DNA of 64,000 nucleotides from Hadesarchaea archaeon (GTDB lineage: Archaea; Hadarchaeota; Hadarchaeia; Hadarchaeales; WYZ-LMO6), in the NCBI GenBank assembly GCA_029259185.1, contig JAPDJF010000003.1:14875-78874 (forward strand), read 5' to 3'. Below, piece after piece: positions 2,426 through 57,185 of this stretch. Each line of letters begins with the position of its first letter. Positions within the stretch are counted from its first letter, which is position 1. The position numbers were made by a program, and so were the translations under genes. The notes beneath the pieces are model-generated. The model was not told the DNA's origin and ran no database searches. It saw only the letters and a program-made list of their open reading frames with translations.

Positions 2426-3033
2426 GCCCTAAGCCGGTTAGCGACGCGGAGGTGCACAGCTTTGTGGAGCTGGAGCAGACGCTTGATGCTTCCACGTTGA
2501 GTTCAGCAGGGAGTCACGAGTTTTCGAAGAAAACCAGAAATGTGAAAAATATGTAAGTGGGCGGGGTGGTTTTTGAGAGGGCCAGAACGGTTCGAATTTA
2601 CGCTTGTGGACATCGAGATGCTCGTGACCCGCTCCGGTGGGGATCGAGTCCGGTGGATGAACTCAATGCAGAGCGCAATCCCTTTCCGAAAGGGAGGTAG
2701 TGAGGCGAAAATATTTATGGAGAAACAACAAACCAATGGCCGGTTAGGTTCCGAAGGAGATCAACACGCCTCTTTCGTATGGGGCGTGGGCTTCGGAGAA
2801 CGCCACCCAGCAGGCGTCAAACGCGCTGGGCGGTCAACTCTCCGAAATAGAAGTGCATCGGGCGAAAGCCGCAAAGCTGGTCGGAACCTGACTGAGGCGG
2901 CTCGGTATATCCGAACCGCCGGGGGCGCTACCGTGAGCACCCACGGTGGAGTGACCGCGCCCGAAAGTCCCGCCGGCAATGGCGTGCAAAGGACAACCGG
3001 AAGCCCCGTCCGAAAGGGCGGTCACTTCCGTAT

Positions 3034-3130
3034 GGGCCCGTGGTCTAGTGGTCATGAGGGGAGAACGGATCCCCTGACAAACGTCGCCTTGACGAGGCGA
3101 AGATCCTGGGTTCGAATCCCAGCGGGCCCA
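3034..3130 (+). tRNA. tRNA-Val(GAC) with a 24-nt intron at a non-canonical position (D-stem 3' side, between tRNA nt 24 and 25; genomic 3058-3081).
   Basis: Acceptor GGGCCCG/CGGGCCC with discriminator A. D-loop AGTGGTCA. T-arm CTGGG-TTCGAAT-CCCAG. Anticodon arm TCGCC-TTGACGA-GGCGA gives anticodon GAC with U33 and purine 37. Removing 3058-3081 restores a canonical ...GUCAUGACG... D-stem/position 26. The intron folds as an hBHBh'-like motif: a 4-bp helix GUCA/UGAC flanked by 3-nt bulges UGA and AAA, with an internal hairpin GGGGA-GAACGGA-UCCCC. Confidence 0.7.
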
Positions 3131-3407
3131 CCTTCTTTTGGATCGACTGAAGAGATGGTCGAGCGGAAGCAGACCTACGCCGAGCGCCTGCTGGGGGATG
3201 CGGAGGACAGAGGGTGTGTCGGAAGCTACACCGAGTCGGCGCTCAAGACGATCAAATGTAATATTGAAACGAGAAAGCATTTTTGAAGACTTCAAATTTA
3301 TGCACATAAAAATCGACTACAAAGGTCCTCTTCGGGACTTTTGACCTCTACCGTTGAGTGATATCTGAAGGCTGGTCTCGAGGAGGGTTCGAAGTGGGGC
3401 CGAAGCG

Positions 3408-3505
3408 TCCACGCTCGCTCGGTGAGTGTTCATGCTGTGACTCCAAAACGCCCACCAGACCAAGTGATTGGTATTTTCCCCAGTCAAAAAAAAGTCGTGT
3501 CCGAG
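3408..3505 (+). repeat. Repeat E, copy 2 (direct repeat of 2330-2425).
   Basis: See copy 1. The two copies bracket tRNA-Val and a GC-rich segment without ORFs. Confidence 0.4.
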
Positions 3506-13892: not shown

Positions 13893-13976
13893 GGGTTTAA
13901 TTCCTTTTCTGAAATTTCTTATTTATTTTTTGTTTCCAGTTTTTGCTTTATCACAATTTCTGGAATATTTTAGAGC

Positions 13977-14160
13977 GGAATCGAGCGAGAAACCCCGCGC
14001 GCTTTAGCCGTGGGGTGAATGCGTGCCGAGGGCCGATTCCGCAATAGCTAACGGCCCGAGCGAACGCCCGGAGACCAAGACCCCCGTAACCCCCCTTCCA
14101 AGGGGGATCGAGCCTGGTCGTCGAAGCATGAAGCCACCGCTTTAGCGGTGCGGTAGTTCA
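13977..14160 (+). repeat. Repeat F, copy 1 (about 185 nt; hairpin-rich; other copies at 35552-35730 and 48487-48675).
   Basis: Near-identical blocks (gaatcgagcgagaaaccccgcg(c)gctttagc(c)gtgggg...ggccgattccgcaatagctaacggccc...ccgtaacc...gggggatcgagcc...ccgctttagcggtgcggtag) in all three copies. Confidence 0.5.
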
Positions 14161-15681
14161 TCTCCTTGCAGGTCTCTCGAACTTTCGGAGTTCAATTACC
14201 TCCACCCTCACGTTTGCCTTCGAGCAAGTTTCTACAAGCGAACTACCCCATCTCTTGGGATCGTTAAAGAGTAAAACCCTGCGATACATCTTTCCGTACC
14301 TTAAGAGATATTCCGAAAGCGATTCACACACCGTGTTAATCTGTGCTTCATCCAGCTCTTTTGGAACCACCACTTGGCCTAAGGGATAAAAATCCTCTAG
14401 CTCCTCGGGGACTACCCCGAATGGTGGCACGAGTCTCACCACGTGAATAGATTCAAGGTTCTCCAACATTACCTTGCGTTTCTCAAAGGATGGCAACAAA
14501 ACCAGAGTTTCGGCCGATGGGGGCTTATATCTCCTCATCCTAGATCGGTGTCGGAGAACCTCCGGACGTCTCACAGCCTCAGAACCGAGATAATCGAACG
14601 CCGAGGGTTTTGTGACGGGATCGAATCGCTCTATGAATTCGGTGTAGTTCATGAGTCTCCTGAGTCCCTCGAGTAGCTTGGGGTGAGATCTGCACTTTAG
14701 CTCAACGTATTCCCACAACCTCCCCTCGACTATCGCCTGTCTTATCCTTCGGATCTCCCCAAAGAGAACATGCAGGTTGTGTCGAGCCAGAACTCTGATC
14801 CTCTCGTCGGTTGGGGCTTCCTTCAGTTCTCCCACCGAATATCCAGTGCAGACCGGACACTCACACGGGAGGAAGGCGAGGTCCTCAAGTTTCAGGGTTT
14901 TCTCGTGGGTAAGATACCGACCGTCTCTTGCGTACAGTATGTATGAGGCTGAATCGAAGAGGTCACAGCCCATGAGCACCAACATCGATAGAACCATTGG
15001 GTGTCCAGCTCCGAAGAGATGGACTGGTCGATCTAGGGGAAGGTGCATTTTGGCGGTCATCACCAAATCGACGATGTCAGTGTACGCATATCCCTCCAAG
15101 AATTCGACAGGGCTACCGATCGCGTGGATATGGTAGTCCATCGTACCCATCCTCCGGGCACACTCAGCGACCAAATCCAAATATTTCCCCCCTTGGACGG
15201 GAGCACACCAAATCGTTTCTGGATTCGATCTGAAACGTGTTGCTCGTTCAGCACGCTCCACTGTCGCCCTAACCGTTTCCAGCGCATGATTCCTCGAAGC
15301 CGCTGCTCCGGTCGGGACATCCAAAATGGTCGCGATGTCTGAACCTATCGAATCTTGGTACTTCACCACTTCGTCAGGATCAGCATCGATTTCTCCGTAT
15401 CGAAGGATTTGATACCCTCCGGAATCGGTAGCGATGGGGCCGTTGTAGTCCAGCATCTCGTGGACTTCTCCGTCTCCAAACTTCTTCATCAAAAAATAAG
15501 CATTAGTCATAATCAAACTCTCTTTGAATTCTCGCTTGATCTCAGATGGTTTGATGATGAGGTTGGATGGATCGACTACGGGCATTAGAGCGGGGGTGAG
15601 CACTCGTCCATGTCCGGTTCTCAGTTCGCCTGTTCTACCCATCCCATCCCGGTGGATTATTCGAAAAAATCCTCTTGACAT
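14158..15681 (-). CDS. tgtA: Archaeosine tRNA-guanine transglycosylase (ArcTGT, TIM barrel plus C-terminal PUA).
   Basis: 507 aa. TGT signature (DSGGYQ, zinc CxCxxC ... LFGAGHP) and C-terminal extension domains. Confidence 0.8.
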   Translation of the reverse strand: MSRGFFRIIHRDGMGRTGELRTGHGRVLTPALMPVVDPSNLIIKPSEIKREFKESLIMTNAYFLMKKFGDGEVHEMLDYNGPIATDSGGYQILRYGEIDADPDEVVKYQDSIGSDIATILDVPTGAAASRNHALETVRATVERAERATRFRSNPETIWCAPVQGGKYLDLVAECARRMGTMDYHIHAIGSPVEFLEGYAYTDIVDLVMTAKMHLPLDRPVHLFGAGHPMVLSMLVLMGCDLFDSASYILYARDGRYLTHEKTLKLEDLAFLPCECPVCTGYSVGELKEAPTDERIRVLARHNLHVLFGEIRRIRQAIVEGRLWEYVELKCRSHPKLLEGLRRLMNYTEFIERFDPVTKPSAFDYLGSEAVRRPEVLRHRSRMRRYKPPSAETLVLLPSFEKRKVMLENLESIHVVRLVPPFGVVPEELEDFYPLGQVVVPKELDEAQINTVCESLSEYLLRYGKMYRRVLLFNDPKRWGSSLVETCSKANVRVEVIELRKFERPARR

Positions 15682-34913: not shown

Positions 34914-35515
34914 ACATGGATCTTGTCAAAGGGATAAACTGGTTCGGGGTCGCAGGAGGGGTTCTAATGCTTATCCTCCCCTTTTCAGGACCGTGGTGGC
35001 AAGCTCACGCGGGGGATGGAATGATGGATTTATCCTTCTCACCTTTCGATCTCCATTTGTCTATCCTCGACCAATCCATGGAGTCTCCTCTCGTGAACTA
35101 CGCCCTTCTGGCTGCGAAGCTTACGGTTCTGGTGGGGGGGCTCCTGCTGGTACTCGGGTCTATTTTCACCGGTCGGTGGTGGTCTAAGCATTTAATGAAG
35201 TTTGGTGCTACCAAGGTATTTTGGATGGTGGTGGGGATGGTGTTGCTTCTCGTGATGGGAGCGTTCTTAGCGAATAGATTCCTTCCGACCTTGGTTTCCT
35301 CCATAGTCAAAGAGGGAAACATCGACATCGATGTGGAAATCCCTTACCTCAGCGGCGAGAGCAGCGGCATAACCGTGCAGGCGGGTTCCACCGCAGTAAA
35401 CGTTCCCATCACAACCTTTTTGACCTCTAGGTTCTGGATCGCCACCGTCGTGGGATTTCTCGGAATAGCCGCCCGCGTTTATCATCGGAAGTTCACCCAC
35501 CAAAGTATGGGGTGA
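34910..35515 (+). CDS. Polytopic membrane protein (4-5 TM), hypothetical.
   Basis: ATGA overlap with the upstream gene suggests translational coupling. Hydrophobic segments present. Confidence 0.45.
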   Translation: MNMDLVKGINWFGVAGGVLMLILPFSGPWWQAHAGDGMMDLSFSPFDLHLSILDQSMESPLVNYALLAAKLTVLVGGLLLVLGSIFTGRWWSKHLMKFGATKVFWMVVGMVLLLVMGAFLANRFLPTLVSSIVKEGNIDIDVEIPYLSGESSGITVQAGSTAVNVPITTFLTSRFWIATVVGFLGIAARVYHRKFTHQSMG

Positions 35516-35551
35516 ATTCGACCTGGGAAAATTGATGATGAAGCTTTAGAA

Positions 35552-35730
35552 CGGAATCGAGCGAGAAACCCCGCACTTTAGCGTGGGGTGAATGCGTGCC
35601 GAGGTCCGATTCCGCAATAGCTAACGGCCCGAGCGAACACCTGGAGATCAATACCTCCGTAACCCCCTTCCATGGGTGATCGAGCCTAGTCGTCGAGGAG
35701 GAAGCCCCGCTTCAGCGGTGCGGTAGTCCA
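35552..35730 (+). repeat. Repeat F, copy 2.
   Basis: See F copy 1. The first hairpin has compensatory changes (ccccgcactttagcgtgggg). Confidence 0.5.
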
Positions 35731-35850
35731 CTGTCTTAGTAACCTCAAACCCGTACCTCGAACGAGTGGGCCCCCCGGATTTTGGGTATACCGGAAAATG
35801 GGCCTTAGATTTGACCACAAGTATTTAAAAGGTCTTGAGGAAGAGGGAAG

Positions 35851-36216
35851 ATGGAAGAGCTATCGAGGAACTTAGAAGCCGAACTTAAAGAGGAGCTGTC
35901 CAGGGTCATCAAGACCGAACTCCAGCAGAGTTTGGCCGAGGAACTCAAGCGCATGATGGAATCCAACTTGAAACAAGTTATCGCAGAAAGCCTCGATAAA
36001 TTGAAAATGAACGAACTTAAGGTTTCGATCGTCCAGAAGATCAAGAAAAAAATAGAGGGGAGGCTGGATCAGCTCATCGAGGAGGTGCTAGATCGGACTA
36101 CCCCCCAAGACATAAGCCGAGCGCTCCTCTCAGCGCTGAGCATGAGCATCGAGGAGGTCAAAAAGGTGCTTGAGGGAGTGGGAGCCGAAAAAACTGGAGA
36201 AAACTCCAATCCGTAG
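35851..36216 (+). CDS. Charged coiled-coil protein, hypothetical (121 aa).
   Basis: Heptad-like E/K/L-rich sequence (ELKEELSRVIKTELQQSLAEELKRMMESNLKQ). Confidence 0.4.
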   Translation: MEELSRNLEAELKEELSRVIKTELQQSLAEELKRMMESNLKQVIAESLDKLKMNELKVSIVQKIKKKIEGRLDQLIEEVLDRTTPQDISRALLSALSMSIEEVKKVLEGVGAEKTGENSNP

Positions 36217-39845: not shown

Positions 39846-40045
39846 TTTAATTCAAAAAACTTTTCCCATGTCGAAACGAGGACTCGGCAGAAAATTTCAT
39901 CCCGTGAGCACAGTTGCAGGAGGTTCGGTCCCTCGTGTGTGCCACCCCGGCCGTTTTATCGGTACCTCAGTACTGGTCGGTGAACTACCCCGCCCTAAAG
40001 GACGGGGCTTCTGCGCTCGCTGGCCAACGGGTAACTTCAGGGTCT

Positions 40046-40210
40046 TCATCGCTTGGGCCATTTGACTTCACCTTTTCGATCCTTTTCCACAAGCTTGAGC
40101 ATGTACTCGCTCGTGTCCTTAAACTTCAGAACCTTCGCCCGGTACTGTGCCCAAGCCCACAGCTCCTCGTCACTCTCGTCATGGAGCACCAAGGATGTGT
40201 GTTTTGCCAT
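40046..40210 (-). CDS. Small ribbon-helix-helix-like protein (54 aa). Below the ORF-track length cutoff.
   Basis: Manual translation gives MAKHTSLVLHDESDEELWAWAQYRAKVLKFKDTSEYMLKLVEKDRKGEVKWPKR. The beta-strand/helix/helix pattern is typical of CopG/Arc-type RHH proteins. Confidence 0.35.
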   Translation of the reverse strand: MAKHTSLVLHDESDEELWAWAQYRAKVLKFKDTSEYMLKLVEKDRKGEVKWPKR

Positions 40211-40430
40211 ACTTGCCAAACGTATATACGTGGCTAGGTTTTATATCTTTTTGGGGTAATCGGCCCCATCCCCTCCCTTGCGGAGGGGTCTTCTCGCGGA
40301 GGCAGATAAATTCTCGTCTTTGATCTTCGAGCTGACTTTCGTCATCCGTTATCTTGGACTCGGTGAGAGACTTGGTTTTTTTTCAAAAAATGTCTAGCGG
40401 TAGAATTAAACGGTAATTTGTCCGAGTCAG

Positions 40431-44154: not shown

Positions 44155-44799
44155 CTACAAAAAGTACTCCTTTATGAATTCAAAATTTCTTTTAGTCTTT
44201 TCCGCCCCTTTGACCACGCCACCGTGGCCTGGGAGCAGGTAGTGAATATCCAACTCGGAAACCCTTCTTATGGAGTCCTTCAATTTCTCCAGATCACCGC
44301 CTGGAAAGTCTGTGCGACCCACACCACCCTCGAACAGGAGATCCCCGCACATCAGTAACTTCAGTTCCTCACAGTAAAAGCTCACACTCCCGGGTGTGTG
44401 ACCGGGAGTGTGAATCACCACGAATTTCATTTTTCCCCCCAGTTTGTCCTCCAAAAAAATATCAACATCGAACTTCGGCATCTCCATTCCGAAGTACCCA
44501 GCGAACTCCATACTGAATGAGAGGTGTTCTAATTCCTCACGGTGCATCGCTATCTTAGCCCCTGAGAGGGTCTGAAGTGCACGGTTGGCCCCGCAGTGAT
44601 CGGGGTGGCTGTGGGTGTTCGCTATTAGGTCTATTTCTCTGATATCGAAACCATCGTTTTCCATCTCCGATAAGCGCTGACTCAAATATCTTGGATTTCC
44701 GGGATCGATGAGCACGCAAGGATTGTTGTCTATCAAGTAGGTGTTGCAGTCACCGATAGCTTTCTCGGGATACCAATAGACATTTTTGACCAGTTTCAT
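44155..44799 (-). CDS. MBL-fold metallo-hydrolase (glyoxalase II-like).
   Basis: THSHPDHCG (HxHxDH) motif. The probable start is MKLVKNV at 44799. Confidence 0.7.
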   Translation of the reverse strand: MKLVKNVYWYPEKAIGDCNTYLIDNNPCVLIDPGNPRYLSQRLSEMENDGFDIREIDLIANTHSHPDHCGANRALQTLSGAKIAMHREELEHLSFSMEFAGYFGMEMPKFDVDIFLEDKLGGKMKFVVIHTPGHTPGSVSFYCEELKLLMCGDLLFEGGVGRTDFPGGDLEKLKDSIRRVSELDIHYLLPGHGGVVKGAEKTKRNFEFIKEYFL

Positions 44800-45627
44800 C
44801 TCGACCACCGCGAGGAGACCCCGTCCGAAAGGGCTGGGAGATTTTTAGGTGAAAATGCGCGTGCGATCTTTGAAGACAGTCCAGCAGGGAGAAACGGCTT
44901 GGATGTGGGCCGGATACCCGAAAACCCGAATAAGCTTGTACAGAAATTCTTTCTGGCTCCGCGGATAGCTTTGCAGGAGCCATGAGTTCCTCCGCTACCT
45001 GACACTCTCTACCACCATTCTCGCTTTGTTTGAACACATACCGTAGAGCCTGCTAGAGAAGCTGGCGACGACGGAGGGGAGATCTCCGACTAACTCCTCG
45101 TGGGGAGTTCGTTCTTCTCGTTCATTTACCACTTCTATTCGAGCGCCGAGATCCTCAGCGTGATTTTTCAAATACTCAAAGCCAAAGCGGGTGAGGCGAT
45201 CTTTCCACGCAACGATCACGGTATCGGCCTCGCCAGCCCTAAGCATCTCGAACACTTTTTTCAACCCCCGTCGGTTCTCGAAAGTCGCAACCACTCGTAT
45301 CGCTTGCCCCTCGCGTATTCCTGAAGCATTCGTTTTTGACGTTTCAAATCTTCTTTCTGATCTACTGAGGAAACCCGTGCGTAGGCGATAGCCCGATTTT
45401 TTGGGACTCGTTGACCGAGCAACCGTTTGATTCCGCTCTCTGGGATACGATACCTTTTGGCCGCAGCCTGATGGCCTTGACCCTGCCCGCGTAAATCCAG
45501 CGCTTTATGGTGATGAACGAAATCTCCAAGAGCTTGGCCGCTTGCCCCGGTGGGCAGAGTTTTTCCCCTCGCATGTTCACCTGGGATATAAAAGGATATT
45601 TTAGGTAGCAGTTACATCACCTTCGAC
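44800..45627 (+). mobile_element. Chimeric/degenerate IS: an IS200/605-type left end (shared with the 1911 and 46852 copies) followed by an inverted, frameshifted IS607-type tnpA. The right boundary is approximate.
   Basis: Left-end identity (ctcgaccaccgcgaggagaccccg...gtgaaaatgc) and the block gagaaacggcttggatgtgg.ccggatacccgaaaacccgaata shared with copy A. Inserted 3' of TTCAT (44795-44799). Confidence 0.45.
44995..45580 (-). pseudogene. tnpA: IS607-family tnpA (MerR-like HTH plus serine-recombinase catalytic domain), disrupted by at least two frameshifts.
   Basis: Three minus-strand frames carry consecutive TnpA blocks: HTH (AAKLLEISFITIKRWIYAGRVKAIRL), the active-site region (AIAYARVSSVDQKEDLKRQ) and RGLKKVFEMLRAGEADTVIVAWKDRLTRFGFEYL. 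Confidence 0.6.
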
Positions 45628-46056: not shown

Positions 46057-46851
46057 CTATCCACTTGAAGCCGCTCTCTCCACCACTTCACTTAGCTCTG
46101 TCATTTTCTCTAGAATTCTCTCACCCCCCTCCGCATCGAATACAGAGACTCCCTTGAGTTCAGCTCTAGCCACACTTTCTTCGTATGGGATAGAGTATAT
46201 GGGAGGAACCCCAATTTTTTGGAGCTTCGTTGAAATGAATTCATTTTCTCTATCACGATATTTGTTTATTACCCCGAATATCTTGGTTATCCCTAGATCC
46301 TCTCCAAGCTTTTTTATCCGTCCAGCTGTTTCGATGGACCTCAGGCTCGGTTCCACCACTGTCAGGAGGATCTCCACTTTTCTCGTCGTTCCCCTTCCAA
46401 GATGTTCCACTCCAGCTTCCATGTCTAGGAGTAAAACATCAGCGACGCCTGAGAGGTGATCCACGAGTCTCCTCGCCAAGGCATTAGCTGGACAGAAACA
46501 ACCCTGTCCCCCCCTTCTGATTCTTCCAACGATAAGGAGTTTAACGCCATCCTTGCATTGGACTCCGAACTTATCTAATAAATCATCGACTTTCGGATTT
46601 AATTTGAAGATCAGTCCATATCCTTCAGGTGGTGCTCCGGTTCTCTCTTCGATGAGGGAGTCTCTCTCCATCAAAGGGATCAGTTTTCTTTCCGGAACTT
46701 CCCCACCAACTCCTAAGGCCGTGATGAGATTCGGGGAAGGATCGACATCCAGTGCAATGACTTTTTTCCCCCTTCTAGCGTAGGCTCTGGATAGTCCTGC
46801 GGCGATCGTTGTCTTTCCAACACCACCTTTTCCCGTTATGGCGATCTTCAT
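46057..46851 (-). CDS. cooC: CooC/AcsF-type Ni-insertion ATPase (MinD/ParA fold) for CO dehydrogenase/ACDS maturation.
   Basis: Walker A GKGGVGKTT plus the CooC-specific CxC motif (GQGCFCPANA). The probable start is MKIAITG at 46851. Confidence 0.7.
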   Translation of the reverse strand: MKIAITGKGGVGKTTIAAGLSRAYARRGKKVIALDVDPSPNLITALGVGGEVPERKLIPLMERDSLIEERTGAPPEGYGLIFKLNPKVDDLLDKFGVQCKDGVKLLIVGRIRRGGQGCFCPANALARRLVDHLSGVADVLLLDMEAGVEHLGRGTTRKVEILLTVVEPSLRSIETAGRIKKLGEDLGITKIFGVINKYRDRENEFISTKLQKIGVPPIYSIPYEESVARAELKGVSVFDAEGGERILEKMTELSEVVERAASSG

Positions 46852-47777
46852 CTCGACCACCGCGAGGAGACCCCGACCTTTTGAGGCGGGGAGGAACTGC
46901 GGGGGGGTTTTAAGTGAAAATGCATATACGCTGTTCTGATGAGGCTCGCCAAGACCGTCGCGTGCAGGCTTGAGCTCAGCGACGAGGAACGGCATAAGCT
47001 CCTCGCACGCTCCAGGCTTTTCGGGATGCCTGCAACCACATCTCCAAGATCGCCTTCGAGCGCAGGGTGTTCAACCCCGTCGCCCTGCACCACATGGTTT
47101 ACAGAGATACCAGGGCCAAATTCGGCCTGCCTGCGAACCTCGCAATCCGCGCCAGGGATCGGGTGGCCAAAGCATACAAGCAAAGGCGGAACAGGCTCCT
47201 CCGGTTCGACAAGCTCTCGCTCGACCTCGACGCTAGGCTCTTCCGTGTGTTCGAGAAGCCCGACGGGTGGCACGCCTCCATCGCAACGGTTCAGAAGCGG
47301 ATCAAGCCCCCGCTCAAAATAGGCGAATACCAGCGGAAACTGCTCGAGGGTGTCAAGCCGACCCACGCCGTGCTCACCTACAAGAACAAGCGGTTCTTCC
47401 TGCACGTCACCGTCGAGCGAGAAGTCCCGGAGCCAAAAGGAGATAACCCAGCCGCTGTTGATGCGGGAATGAACAATTTGCTCGTCGCTTCCAACGGCTT
47501 CAAGGTCAGGGGCAAAGGTATCCTCAAACGAAGACAGCACTTTCGAGCCTTGCGCTCCTCCCTCCAAGCCAAAGGCAAGCCGTCTGCCAAGCGCGGGCTG
47601 AAACGGCTCGGCTCGAAGGAGGGGAGATGGGTTGCTCGCGTGAACTTGGAGCGGAGAGCCGGCTCTCCCTCCATGGGCCGCCCCGTCAACCGGCCCTATG
47701 CGGGTTTGAGTGTCTTCGGACATGATGATCACCCTGCAAGCCCATCCTTTAGGGAAGGGTAGTTGACCTTCTTAACC
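46852..47777 (+). mobile_element. Degenerate IS200/605-family (TnpB-only type) element. It consists of a left end, a tnpB pseudogene with an internal deletion, and a right end.
   Basis: The left end is shared with 44800 and the right end with 2040-2132. Inserted 3' of TTCAT (46847-46851), which overlaps the cooC start. Confidence 0.6.
46939..47762 (+). pseudogene. tnpB: tnpB (IS605 OrfB family) remnant. N-terminal part only, with one frameshift near 47010 and a deletion of the RuvC/zinc-finger C-terminal region.
   Basis: MRLAKTVACRLELSDEERHKLLAR, then after a frame change TLQAFRDACNHISKIAFERRVFNPVALHHMVYRDTRAKFGLPANLAIRARDRVAKAYK...AAVDAGMNNLLVASNG...KRLGSKEGRWVARVN. The remnant then runs directly into the right end. 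Confidence 0.6.
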
Positions 47778-47804: not shown

Positions 47805-48050
47805 CGTTCACTTTCCCTCGCGCTTCGCGGAAGCTTTCCCCGCTTTAGCGGTGCTCTAGCCCCTGCTTCATCCACCGACCCGATCCCATCCCCCTTCGGG
47901 CGGTTACGGAGATCCAATGTCCATCCTACCCGCGTCGTGGAGGTTTACAGGCGTTGGGTTCGGGGTGGCCCTCTCCACCTCCCGGAAGATTTTCGGCTCT
48001 CATCCCCAGCTCTCGCAGGGAACTTTCCGCTGACAGAATTAAAATAGGAG
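47805..48050 (+). repeat. Repeat D, copy 1 (about 245 nt; candidate structured RNA/MITE; the inverted copy is at 56912-57185).
   Basis: Four long conserved blocks match the inverted copy. They are separated by two variable insertions (19 vs 28 nt and 1 vs 24 nt). Confidence 0.5.
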
Positions 48051-48074
48051 ACATCACAACATTGCTTTGGAAGC

Positions 48075-48485
48075 ATGGGAGAGAAAATAGCGAGAATAAG
48101 CATCACTTTGCCCCAAGAGCTCCTTAAGGAACTCGATAAATCATTGAGGGCTCAACGATATGCAAGCCGGTCTGAGGCGATAAGAGATGCGGTCAGAGAC
48201 TTCTTGGCGGCATACAAGTGGCGAACGGAGTTAAGGGGAGAACAGTTGGGAGTTATCGTCCTCCTTTATGATCACCATACCCGCGGGCTTACGGATGTGA
48301 TCACCGAGATCCAGCACGAAAAAAGTGAGGTGATAAGAGCCTCCCAGCATATGCACATCGATCAGGAAAACTGTATGGAAACCTTGATGGTAAAGGGACC
48401 ATCGGAAGAGATAAAACGACTGGTAGATAGGCTAGGGGCACTACGTGGAGTCAAGCAAGCTAAGCTCATAGTGGTATCGTCTTAG
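48075..48485 (+). CDS. nikR: Nickel-responsive regulator NikR (RHH plus C-terminal metal-binding domain).
   Basis: N-terminal RHH (KIARISITLPQELLKELD...RSEAIRDAVRDFL) and a C-terminal domain with His/Cys ligands (HH...H...C). Confidence 0.7.
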   Translation: MGEKIARISITLPQELLKELDKSLRAQRYASRSEAIRDAVRDFLAAYKWRTELRGEQLGVIVLLYDHHTRGLTDVITEIQHEKSEVIRASQHMHIDQENCMETLMVKGPSEEIKRLVDRLGALRGVKQAKLIVVSS

Positions 48486-48486
48486 G

Positions 48487-48675
48487 TGAACTACCGCACC
48501 GCTAAGGCGGTGGGCCTCTTGCTTCAACGATGAGGCTCGATCCCCCTTGGAAGGACGGGTTACGGAGGTCTTGACCTCACGGGCGTTCGTTCGGGCCGTT
48601 AGCTATTGCGGAATCGGCCCTCGGCACGCATTCGCCCCACGGCTAAAGCGCGCGGGGTTTCGATCCCGTTCTAAA
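48487..48675 (-). repeat. Repeat F, copy 3 (reverse orientation).
   Basis: The reverse complement aligns along its full length to F copies 1 and 2. Confidence 0.5.
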
Positions 48676-48859
48676 TTTTCGATCCGGAGTCCTTTAGCCT
48701 TTTTTTGGAAATCTTTCTAACCTCTTCCCACTCTTTCATTGATTCTAATTTTTTCTTCTTTCGAAAAGCCTCCATTATTTTGTTTTCTTCCATGGCTACT
48801 TCAATATCCCCACTTTCACATCCCAACTACATCACCATCCTCCTTTTTCCTAGACTCTT

Positions 48860-56911: not shown

Positions 56912-57185
56912 TTTTAACTCTGTCGGCGGGAAGTTCCCTGCGAGAGCTGGGGATGAGAGCCGAAAACCATGTTATTTCCCCTCCAATTTCTTCCGGGAGG
57001 TGGAGAGGGCCACCCCGAACCCAACGCCTTGGAAAACCGATGACCTGCACAGCGCAGGTAGGATGGACATTGGATCTCCGTAACCGCCCGAAGGGGGATG
57101 GGATCGGGTCGGTGGATGAAGCAGGGGCTAGAGCACGCTAAAGCGGGGAAAGCTTCCGCGAAGCGCGAGGGAAAAGCGGAAGCCC
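56912..57185 (-). repeat. Repeat D, copy 2 (inverted relative to copy 1), in the convergent fdhB/cdhE intergenic region.
   Basis: Its reverse complement aligns to 47805-48050. Confidence 0.5.

Follow-up and report, generated by a model that had tools for sequence, protein, structure and literature searches.

A protein-less repeat family of a Hadarchaeota archaeon as a probable PATE derived from an IS200/IS605-family TnpB insertion sequence

Family F, a short repeat with three copies in the 64,000-nucleotide stretch of DNA analysed here (the window) from an uncultured Hadarchaeota archaeon, is in all likelihood a PATE (palindrome-associated transposable element), a non-autonomous, protein-less derivative of an archaeal IS200/IS605-family TnpB insertion sequence (probability of about 0.85), and is an ordinary kind of selfish DNA. 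PATEs have been defined as elements that encode no protein, have neither terminal inverted repeats nor target duplications, and carry near-terminal palindromes and a 5' targeting oligonucleotide (PMC3119063). F is too short to encode a transposase, is flanked by the pentanucleotide TTTAG and carries subterminal palindromes at both ends, the right one being statistically supported and the left one marginal. As in the IS200/IS605 family, its putative cleavage sites lie at fixed distances from subterminal hairpins on the same strand. The original prediction had suggested MITEs, and a miniature repeat derived from a mobile element is indeed what we found; however, comparison of the 5' end with the reverse-complemented 3' end gave only 3-5 matches out of 20, arguing against terminal inverted repeats, and no target-site duplication was found at F, the flanks being unrelated. 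CRISPR, tRNA-derived SINE and chance repeat were also considered as identities of F and were ruled out by its anatomy. The correct label matters, as F in Hadarchaeota genomes could otherwise be annotated as small-RNA genes, terminators or riboswitch-like elements.

Copies of family F and their insertion sites

The copies lie at 13974-14161 on the plus strand (c1, 188 nt, complete from left to right end), 35550-35731 on the plus strand (c2, 182 nt) and 48486-48670 on the minus strand (c3, 185 nt, its left spacer shortened by a 6-nt deletion). Three copies of about 185 nt had been predicted and were found at essentially the expected coordinates, the predicted edges falling mostly 1-5 nt inside the refined limits; the left limit of c3 had been placed at 48675, which is close to the refined 48670 but takes in the adjacent TTTAG. 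Pairwise identity among the three is high, as expected, although the measured range was 82-89% and not 85-90%. The limits of F are sharp, homology in the alignments ceasing abruptly at both the left and the right edge, and the right terminus reads GGTAGTTCA[C/T] in the F copies, with GGTAGTCCAC in c2. A fourth F locus of the same species, L003, was located outside the window, in a sample which also yielded a contig with an identical nikR, while no further copy was present in the 6.3 kb to the left of the window. Reading frames within F are disrupted differently in each copy and no ORF is conserved; a HMMER search of 1.8 billion representative proteins with a 45-aa peptide of c1 returned nothing relevant, and no TnpB. 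The sequence 'RADSAIAN' of c1 was considered as a RuvC-III-like motif and rejected, as it is merely a nucleotide-level echo of 'DRDYIAAC' in the type-2 TnpB elements described below.

The predicted gene neighbourhoods were confirmed. The stop codon of tgtA (TGA, 14158-14160, minus strand) falls within the final bases of c1 (TCA), and about 80 nt separate the opposite end of this copy from the start of lrp. The right end of c3 adjoins the nikR stop codon at 48483-48485, and on its other side the flanking TTTAG provides the stop codon of the micro-ORF. The neighbours of c2 are a 201-aa membrane-protein gene (stop at 35515) and a 121-aa gene (start at 35851).

TTTAG stands directly to the left of F at all four independent insertions, the sequence farther left being unrelated. 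At c1 it occupies 13969-13973 (+), where it represents the target or transposon-adjacent motif (TAM), the counterpart of the left cleavage site C_L; it lies at 35545-35549 (+) at c2 and at 48671-48675 (-) at c3, where its TAG is the stop codon of a 51-aa micro-ORF, 48671-48826 (-). Since the motif occurs in the window at a rate of only 5.6e-4 per position, its presence at 4/4 left junctions is not due to chance. A stop codon is present in TTTAG (TAG) as well as in its complement CTAAA (TAA), so that the location of F beside stop codons follows from the target motif. The left motifs found among these archaeal elements are TTCAT, TTCAG and TTTAG; TTCAT is the complement of ATGAA, and sister elements are located exactly at start codons, where they provide the 5' leader of host genes. 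F and its relatives thus show a target motif steering insertions to gene ends.

This setting bears on whether F could instead belong to the host, as a family of small RNAs or cis-regulatory sites (terminators, attenuators or protein-binding sites) with no more than a resemblance to transposon ends. F is intergenic and GC-rich inside AT-rich spacers, two of its copies adjoin the 3' ends of convergent genes, and either strand folds better than its shuffled counterparts (z = -2.2 and -2.7). However, the suggestion that F might supply terminators or regulatory sites was not borne out, as the hairpins lack a following T-tract in both orientations and the target motif accounts for the positions at stop codons. 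Furthermore, the neighbouring genes are functionally unrelated (tgtA/lrp, membrane protein, nikR) and the orientation of F relative to them is inconsistent, while the homology to tnpB 3' ends and the full IS200/IS605 end anatomy described below explain the sequence without a host function. A host regulatory family is thus very improbable, and a PATE remains the preferred reading of F.

Copies c1-c3 were present in all strains sampled, and neither an empty site nor a strain-specific insertion was found among the strains checked, the nearest other lineage having 66% TgtA identity; in an orthologue comparison the TgtA C-termini were not conserved in this next relative. Their divergence of 11-18% and their occurrence in all strains sampled make it probable that these copies are old and fixed. 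Between assemblies, unique DNA was ~100% identical whereas the repeat at the nikR locus was only ~87% identical and looked mosaic. These mosaic variants could be due to either gene conversion or assembly chimerism, and they were left out of the evolutionary evidence. Short-read contigs end or turn chimeric inside F, and in one contig (L007) the left flank of c1 is fused to the right flank of c3. The PATE nature of F explains such assembly breaks and chimeras at these loci in short-read data.

Right end, left end and central core

Two groups of archaeal TnpB-only (IS1341-type) elements were used for comparison. The TTGAC-type elements comprise L012, L014, L020-L030 and an internally deleted remnant in the window (46852-47767), while the TTCAC-type, or type-2, elements comprise L003 top and L015-L019 and include fragments bearing the TnpB TNB domain. 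Also present in the window are a ~220-nt derivative related to F (1911-2132) and the right end of a related element (39981-40017, minus strand). L015 came from assembly ERZ25515360, which also gave a nikR contig of this organism, and, like the window remnant, is internally deleted, as are thus both tnpB remnants in the assemblies of this organism; type-2 relatives in other samples are truncated or frameshifted. A search for a full-length type-2 parent gave only fragments of 63-113 aa or frameshifted genes, with no readable left end. Neither the window nor the loci fetched from this organism yielded an intact TnpB, and a tblastn search of the 64-kb window and the fetched loci with an IS608 TnpA query, a weak test, revealed no Y1 TnpA.

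A significant link to these elements was provided by the right part of F. A profile of F searched with nhmmer matched type-2 tnpB 3' ends with E = 4.9e-8 (L019), 9e-8 (L018), 3.3e-7 (L015), 1.2e-6 (L016) and 2.1e-5 (L003 top). Together with the alignments, this placed a block homologous to the type-2 tnpB 3' end and right end at 14051-14161 (+) in c1, corresponding to the 3' ~110 nt of F from element position ~78 to the end. An exact 18-mer, ACGGCCCGAGCGAACGCC, is common to c1 and L015. Relative to type-2, F is devoid of 13 nt of an internal stem and of everything upstream of the ~110 nt. In characterised TnpB systems the reRNA covers the 3' end of tnpB together with the right end, and extends through about 16 nt of flank (PMC8612924); judged by position and homology, the retained 3' part of F is the homologue of the omega/reRNA scaffold-encoding region of those systems.

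At the right end of c1 a putative guide tetranucleotide G_R, GAAG, is followed by the right subterminal palindrome IP_R (together 14130-14153, plus strand; CCACCGC TTTA GCGGTGCGG, with one bulged C) and by a tail at 14154-14161 (+) consisting of a TAGT linker and TCA[T], TCAC in other copies, the putative C_R or transposon-encoded motif. The equivalent IP_R and tail lie at 35705-35723 and 35724-35731 in c2 (TAGTCCAC) and at 48494-48513 and 48486-48493 in c3 (TAGTTCAC). The tail past the right hairpin measures 8-9 nt in F and its relatives, and the string GGTAGTTSA occurs six times in the window against 0.79 expected. The stem sequence of the right hairpin is wholly different among F, type-2 and TTGAC-type elements, yet the pairing is always kept. 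This terminal hairpin, with its pairing kept between families, is also the putative TnpA binding site.

At the left end of c1 a 19-nt spacer (13974-13992, plus strand) runs from the cleavage site to the hairpin foot and ends in GAAA (13989-13992), the putative G_L. It is followed by the left subterminal imperfect palindrome IP_L (13993-14015, plus strand; CCCCGCG / CGCTTTAGC / CGTGGGG), in which a G.T wobble occurs on this strand only; IP_L lies at 35569-35588 in c2 and 48635-48657 in c3. The distance from junction to left hairpin is 19 nt in c1 and c2, 17 in L003 and 13 in c3, the shorter spacers being due to 2-nt and 6-nt deletions in L003 and c3, respectively. As read in L012, L014 and ten loci of the genome_contigs set, full-length TnpB left ends consist of YTCAT, a stretch of 18-19 nt with GA[AG]A at its end, a hairpin CCCACGG...CCGTGGG and then AGGAAT, and the IP_L of F resembles theirs, GAAACCCACGGCTT[C/A]AG[C/T]CGTGGGAGG. 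A profile of these left ends gave a marginal match to the left end of F (E = 0.04-0.08). The shared layout points to an anatomical link between F and full-length archaeal TnpB elements which at the sequence level is statistically marginal. The two palindromes of F have the same orientation and related sequence (CGCTTTAGCCGTGGGGTGAAT and CGCTTTAGCGGTGCGGTAGTT), IP_L at 13993-14015 and IP_R at 14134-14153 having CGCTTTAGC..GTG.GGT in common. Both hairpins with a repeated loop motif that had been predicted are present, with CTTTAGC-type loops. A compensatory change between copies in the first hairpin had also been claimed, but c2 instead carries a 3-nt loop deletion and a G>A change which creates an A.C mismatch, and RNAalifold identified no pair with both sides changed among either three or six sequences.

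Between the two ends lies the least variable core of F (14030-14057, plus strand, in c1; 35603-35630 in c2; 48593-48620 in c3), a hairpin GGGCCG...CGGCCC with a 16-nt loop. The stretch 14034-14042 (CGATTCCGC) of the core loop is complementary to 13975-13983 (GCGGAATCG), and their pairing could form an outer helix round IP_L. In the central segment, which spans element positions 46-110 (14019-14082 in the window) and includes this hairpin, the rate of variable columns was 0.15, against 0.24-0.42 elsewhere, and the longest invariant run comprised 27 columns (permutation p = 0.017). The family-specific core, GCCGATTCCGCAATAGCTAACGG, searched as an exact pattern, had no match in 185,579 reference genomes or in viral contigs and a single match in JGI metagenomes. 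The proposed likeness to family D (47810-48044, minus strand; 56912-57170, plus strand) proved real but is short, about 75 nt, and marginal (F profile E = 0.03); the block concerned, AACGCC..CCGTAACC-hairpin-GGGGAT..GAAGCA, is common to F and family D and partly also to type-2 ends.

The presence of a scaffold-related block raises the question of whether F copies could be still-functional stand-alone omega RNA modules, loaded on a TnpB supplied from elsewhere and acting in homing or, if domesticated, in host targeting or regulation, the guides of c1 and c3 for example being antisense to the 3' ends of tgtA and nikR. The homology of the 3' ~110 nt to the omega/reRNA scaffold region (PMC8612924), the lower variability of the core with its invariant run, and the ~75-nt block shared with family D and in part with type-2 ends are all consistent with such a module, and PATEs 'often encode omega RNAs' (PMC10055086). 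In addition, a same-strand ORF ends shortly upstream of three of the four copies, so that read-through could give transcripts. Against this, the tnpB remnants of this organism are internally deleted and the type-2 relatives elsewhere truncated or frameshifted, and F is without the 13 nt of internal stem and the upstream sequence present in type-2. An internal archaeal promoter motif was not found in F, Rfam searches of the whole window at gathering thresholds and of c1 at E <= 10 gave only a tRNA and noise, and covariation within F was absent, while the core is only modestly less variable, which could also be due to gene conversion or assembly smoothing. Functional omega RNA modules thus seem unlikely, though not negligibly so. 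Of the small-RNA family originally proposed, the homology of the 3' part to the omega/reRNA scaffold-encoding region stands, but an Rfam match is lacking. Should the right part of F still be a working omega RNA scaffold, it would offer a compact (~110-nt) archaeal TnpB guide together with its TAM, which would be relevant to genome editing.

TnpB-derived repressors are known in bacteria. An extension of the same idea, that F copies are kept as trans-acting guide-RNA genes with guides fixed beside host gene ends (tgtA for c1, nikR for c3), and that a TnpB or a nuclease-dead derivative encoded elsewhere uses them for element maintenance or host regulation, is highly speculative and we give it very little credence; if true, F would be an archaeal counterpart of the bacterial repressors.

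Guide tetranucleotides and a proposed route of mobilisation

The recognition code of IS608 pairs C[1] with G[2], C[2] with G[1] and C[4] with G[4] (PMC5934647). At the right end, GAAG as G_R with TCAC as C_R in F, in type-2 and in the element at 39981 is an exact fit to this code, and in 15/15 TTGAC-type elements G_R is CAA[G/A] with TGAC as C_R, so that G_R[1] and C_R[2] switch together across families (G:C vs C:G). The GAAG/CAAG assignment was read directly off the sequences, as automated extraction gave inconsistent registers. The left ends of the TnpB relatives, with GA[A/G]A as G_L and TCAT as C_L, also fit the code. In F, however, the G_L GAAA predicts TCAT whereas the observed left site is TTAG, which fits only with a G.T wobble and a mismatch at position 4, or with a register shift of 1 nt to AAAC. 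F and its relatives can thus serve as a small natural data set on the IS608-type pairing rule, GAAG/TCAC vs CAAG/TGAC.

These features also bear on the transposase involved. A frameshifted gene with HTH and Resolvase domains, an IS607-type serine recombinase pseudogene, lies in the window at 44995-45580 (-), and IS607-family elements carry tnpB too, so that F might have been mobilised by such an enzyme rather than by a Y1 TnpA. However, same-strand hairpins, a 19-nt left spacing and guide/cleavage-site covariation (PMC3201880, PMC5934647), as well as a short right tail, 8-9 nt compared with 10 nt in IS608 (PMC3201880), are typical of Y1 TnpA substrates, and the full-length TnpB relatives fetched have no adjacent serine recombinase gene. 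Mobilisation by a serine recombinase is accordingly hard to credit, and the PATE reading, with a Y1 TnpA acting in trans, is the one developed here.

The origin of archaeal PATEs by core deletion of IS605-type elements is documented, and some retain C-terminal tnpB sequence (PMC3119063). In the case of F, the parent would have lost its promoter and almost the whole of tnpB through an internal deletion. The ~75 nt kept on the left would comprise the 19-nt spacer ending in the guide tetranucleotide, the left hairpin and the outer helix, and the ~110 nt kept on the right the final type-2 tnpB codons, now out of frame, the right hairpin and TAGT+TCAC. By analogy with IS608 and ISDra2, a Y1 (HUH) TnpA supplied in trans would bind both top-strand hairpins and cut the left end 3' of TTTAG and the right end 3' of TCAC, each site being recognised by its base pairing with the tetranucleotide on the 5' side of the corresponding hairpin. 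It would then excise a single-stranded circle, whose RE-LE junction is predicted to read ...GGTAGTTCAC|AACGGAATCG..., and insert it on the 3' side of a TTTAG elsewhere, with no target duplication. If transcribed together with ~16-20 nt of right flank, the right part of F might guide a TnpB made elsewhere, which could cut the vacated TTTAG+flank site and so restore F. Mobilisation of F by TnpA is an inference by analogy; the one indirect indication of mobility is that F sits at several unrelated loci.

Comparison with known systems

The closest parallels are the haloarchaeal PATEs, such as HqIRS of Haloquadratum walsbyi (Dyall-Smith et al. 2011, PMC3119063). Like F, these have no protein, terminal inverted repeats or target duplications, carry near-terminal palindromes which are similar both to one another and to the palindromes of IS605-type (IS1341/TnpB) elements, have a targeting sequence of 4-6 nt on the 5' side and arose by core deletion; HqIRS71, like F, keeps non-coding remnants of the tnpB C-terminal region. 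F differs in belonging to another phylum (Hadarchaeota, with a thermophile-like composition) and in having no sequence relationship to them, and while mobility in Haloquadratum was proven by strain-specific insertions (PMC3119063), none were found for F in the strains checked.

In IS608 of Helicobacter pylori the left site lies 19 nt 5' of the hairpin foot, as in F, and in both IS608 and ISDra2 of Deinococcus radiodurans the right end is cleaved a few nt past its hairpin, on the 3' side, where the putative site of F also lies (PMC3201880). Under the IS608 pairing rule (PMC5934647), GAAG/TCAC in F corresponds to GAAT/TCAA in IS608. The guide scaffold of these two elements is formed by the tnpB 3' end and the right end (PMC8612924), and F keeps the homologous part. 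In contrast to both, F has neither tnpA nor tnpB, a right tail of 8-9 rather than 10 nt, a TTTAG target and an imperfect left guide match.

The PATE-like elements of Geobacillus stearothermophilus (Meers et al. 2023, PMC10055086) are likewise protein-less, and their IS200/IS605 ends are the same as those of the TnpB-bearing elements of that genome; they are presumed to be moved by TnpA, and to make use of TnpB, in trans. The work on Geobacillus demonstrated an intact tnpA, intact TnpBs and omega RNA expression, while none of these has been seen for F. Among the TnpB-only elements analysed here, F differs in having no promoter or ORF and in its flank, TTTAG compared with YTCAT (TTCAG in two Hadarchaeota loci), but it has the same left-end layout as the TTGAC-type elements, and with type-2 it shares the homologous right ~110 nt and the same GAAG...TAGTTCAC right end.

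Copies of family F and their surroundings

The three copies of repeat family F in the window (c1 to c3) aligned pairwise at 82-89% identity across ~185-190 nt, confirming the three ~185-nt copies of the original prediction (there put at 85-90%). Homology broke off abruptly at both edges, and the exact limits were refined to 13974-14161 (+) for c1, 35550-35731 (+) for c2 and 48486-48670 (-) for c3. TTTAG was found directly before each copy, and the right terminus was GGTAGTTCA[C/T], with the variant GGTAGTCCAC in c2. A fourth copy was located at an unrelated locus, downstream of an alpha/beta-hydrolase gene (L003:427-613, minus strand), on a contig from a JGI sample that also gives a contig with an identical nikR. 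Contigs near-identical to that of the window were present in other samples. As the best named relatives of TgtA, from Hadesarchaea/Hadarchaeales MAGs, were at most 66% identical, the host is an uncultured Hadarchaeota lineage without a close sequenced relative. Four short-read contigs (L002, L008, L010, L011) terminated inside the repeat and one (L007) joined the left flank of c1 to the right flank of c3, as is to be expected with a dispersed repeat. Core 18-21-mers of F occurred in none of 185,579 reference genomes and in no viral contigs, and the family thus seems confined to the present lineage. Its copies, 11-18% diverged and common to all strains sampled, look old and fixed. Between same-species assemblies, unique DNA was ~100% identical and the F repeat at the nikR locus ~87% identical and mosaic. 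Two contigs of this locus (L004 and L005, window ~47900-48700) were 100% identical in unique DNA, with the repeats flanking nikR differing by 8-24% per 100-nt window and the F copy mosaic; the cause is gene conversion between the copies or else chimeric or faulty assembly.

Insertions beside stop codons are expected of F, since TTTAG contains TAG and its complement TAA. As predicted, c1 overlapped the tgtA stop, the TGA at 14158-14160 (minus strand) being made by its last bases, and lay upstream of lrp, which starts ~80 nt past its other end. Removal of c1 in silico left ...GCA AGG AGC TAA (minus strand) at the tgtA end, and the insertion appears to have exchanged the last codon and stop of tgtA (...ARS* to ...ARR*), with TGA coming from the right end. 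The predicted position of c3, between nikR and a 51-aa micro-ORF, also held: the nikR stop codon (48483-48485) adjoins the element just outside it, and the TAG stop of the micro-ORF comes from the TTTAG of c3. The suggestion that F supplies terminators was not borne out, as no T-tracts fit for archaeal termination were seen at the hairpins of c1-c3.

The proposed likeness to family D was upheld in part. This family is probably the pair at 47810-48044 (-) and 56912-57170 (+), ~95% identical in inverted orientation, which has a ~75-nt block in common with F (AACGCC..CCGTAACC-hairpin-GGGGAT..GGTCG..GAAGCA..CCGCTAAAGCGG; F profile E = 0.03 and 0.38), but its ends are not GGTAGTTCAC. A distant relative of the right part of F at 2573-2705 (+) (cgtgacc-hairpin-ggggatcgag...ccctttccgaaagggaGGTAGTGAGG; F profile E = 0.004) lies ~330 nt upstream of an intron-containing tRNA gene (3034-3130, +), in which a 26-nt insertion in the D-arm region marks a non-canonical intron position. 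On both sides of this tRNA region is a 70-nt direct repeat pair of 80% identity (2325-2394 and 3405-3474, +; GCG..CGCTCGGTGAGTGT..GCTGTG.CTCCAAAACGCC..CCAGACC).

Relationship of F to tnpB elements

The window contained six occurrences of the motif GGTAGTTSA, where 0.79 would be expected, and those at 2123 and 47758 closed sequences that come after a tnpB remnant. An ORF at 47067-47762 gave a weak OrfB_IS605 match, and its N-terminal ~190 residues were 72-79% identical to full-length ~385-aa archaeal TnpBs. Relatives of this TnpB (TTGAC-type) were fetched from contigs L012 and L014 and from 30 reference-genome loci, spanning Hadesarchaea, Archaeoglobi, Methanomethylicia, Thermoproteota, Aenigmatarchaeota and Thermococci, with both ends read in about a dozen of them. 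Their left ends consist of YTCAT, 18-19 nt ending GA[AG]A, a hairpin (typically CCCACGGCTTCAGYCGTGGG) and AGGAATTG, followed by a short spacer-complementary segment, a TATA-like TTTAAATA and tnpB, while their right ends read CAA[G/A], hairpin, TAGT, TGAC. In the left end of F the parts come in this order too, and the hairpin is similar (GAAACCCCGCG...CGTGGGGTGAAT); a profile from the TnpB left ends matched F marginally (E = 0.04-0.08). The closest full-length relative (79% identical), on the ENA hydrocarbon metagenome contig L012, sits among phage-like genes (HK97 gp10-like, Phage_tube_2), a hint that this TnpB family may travel with viruses.

Three TTGAC-type elements lie in the window, all on the plus strand: an internally deleted tnpB element at 46847-47767 (transposon-adjacent motif TTCAT at 46847-51; right end ...GGGTAGTTGAC at 47767), a ~220-nt protein-less derivative at 1906-2132 (TTCAT at 1906-10; right end at 2132) and a left-end-only remnant at 44795-44932 (TTCAT at 44795-99). 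Read on the opposite strand, each of these TTCAT motifs is the ATG(AA) with which a host gene starts (MinD/ParA-like, membrane-protein and metallo-beta-lactamase genes), and the left ends are therefore now the 5' leaders of these genes, including a GGTGGTC Shine-Dalgarno-like motif. The right end of the fourth F copy is followed, after 30 nt, by a further TTGAC-type left end (L003 330-425, minus strand; TTTTTCAT|CCTGACCACAGCAAGGAGG|TCCCATCCGCTGGGTGGGA), so that the two kinds of element cluster. A frameshifted IS607-type serine recombinase (TnpA) pseudogene was also found at 44995-45580 (-), its HTH_17 and Resolvase N-terminal domains spread across three ORFs.

A closer, probable parent was provided by L003, which also contains the 3' end of a different, TTCAC-type (type-2) tnpB (...DRDYIAACRILRVGLGRSEVTPVEMGPLL...ESWG*), followed by a hairpin and GGTAGTTCAC. 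A search with this tail returned only fragments of 63-113 aa, two of them with the TnpB TNB domain, and their loci are decayed elements: those in L016 and L017 are near full-length yet frameshifted, and that in L015, whose source assembly ERZ25515360 also gives a nikR contig of the host organism, has its first 22 codons joined to its last 40 by an internal deletion. The F profile matched type-2 ends at E = 4.9e-8, 9e-8, 3.3e-7, 1.2e-6 and 2.1e-5. As these matches cover the 3' two-thirds of F, and the alignments run from ACGGCCCGAGCGAACGCC (an exact 18-mer in common with L015) to the right end, F is, judged from sequence, a ~75-nt left end joined directly to the 3'-terminal ~110 nt of a type-2 element. 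The reading frames of F are broken differently copy by copy, and a search with the c1 peptide gave no relevant match. In front of another right end, at 39981-40017 (-) (GAAG|CCCCGTCC TTTA GGGCGGGG|TAGTTCAC), there is no tnpB but, within 39981-40215 (-), a 54-aa ORF that has a TATA-like box to itself; a similar 44-aa ORF (L015 1374-1508) precedes the deleted tnpB. Neither ORF had a Pfam match; by eye both look like ribbon-helix-helix proteins, and that element family may carry them as passengers or regulators.

Palindromes, putative cleavage sites and class of F

On the top strand of F, TTTAG is followed by 19 nt ending GAAA and then by a left imperfect palindrome (CCCCGCG-CGCTTTAGC-CGTGGGG), in which a G.T wobble can pair on this strand only. 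The right side consists of GAAG, a palindrome of related sequence (CCACCGC-TTTA-GCGGTGCGG), TAGT and TCAC. The compensatory change claimed for the first hairpin is instead a 3-nt loop deletion in c2 with a G>A change that gives an A.C mismatch, and RNAalifold, run on 3 or 6 sequences, found no covariation, with zero pairs changed on both sides. It predicted an invariant long-range helix between GAAU..UGCCG, just 3' of the left hairpin, and CGGUAGUUC in the right tail. The proposal that F is a MITE was rejected, as terminal inverted repeats (3-5/20 matches) and target duplication in the flanks were both absent.

In IS608, the tetranucleotides 5' of each hairpin recognise the cleavage sites, which lie 19 nt 5' of the left hairpin foot and 10 nt 3' of the right hairpin (PMC3201880, PMC5934647). 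The site/guide sequences are TTAC/AAAG and TCAA/GAAT, with pairs C[1]:G[2], C[2]:G[1] and C[4]:G[4] and a non-canonical A.A at position 3 (PMC5934647). At right ends, putative guide GAAG accompanied putative cleavage site TCAC in F, the type-2 elements and the element at 39981 (-), and guide CAA[G/A] accompanied TGAC in 15 TTGAC-type elements; guide base 1 and site base 2 thus change together, G:C against C:G. At left ends, the TnpB relatives combine GA[A/G]A with TCAT. The fit is looser in F, where GAAA matches TTAG only if a G.T wobble is allowed and position 4 left mismatched, or if the register moves by 1 nt to AAAC. TTCAG is present close to where the motif should be in two loci of Hadarchaeota (L015, L020), and the left motif thus appears to be variable, of the form T[T/C]A[T/G].

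If F moves in the manner of IS608 and ISDra2, its two top-strand hairpins would be bound by a Y1 TnpA acting in trans, which would cut out this strand in circular form and place it 3' of another TTTAG. The window and the fetched host loci showed neither an intact TnpB nor an intact TnpA, the latter sought by tblastn with an IS608 TnpA sequence. In characterised TnpB systems, the region corresponding to the retained right part of F encodes a ~150-nt reRNA/omega RNA, of which the last ~16 nt are flank (PMC8612924), and PATE-like elements "often encode omega RNAs" for TnpB acting in trans (PMC10055086); homing by TnpB may thus maintain F, or may have done so in the past. There is little evidence that F acts as an RNA today. 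In favour, its central segment (element positions 46-110) had 0.15 variable columns against 0.24-0.42 elsewhere (invariant run, p = 0.017), and the ~75-nt block recurs in another repeat family. Against it stand the lack of covariation, of an Rfam match, of an internal promoter and of any intact TnpB or TnpA among the sequences examined.

Compared with IS608, F has a matching layout of hairpins, putative guides and putative cleavage sites, and it has all the structural features in the haloarchaeal definition of palindrome-associated transposable elements (PATEs), protein-less IS200/IS605 derivatives, with demonstrated mobility the exception (PMC3119063). F is very probably a PATE, a kind already known, and the family itself is new.
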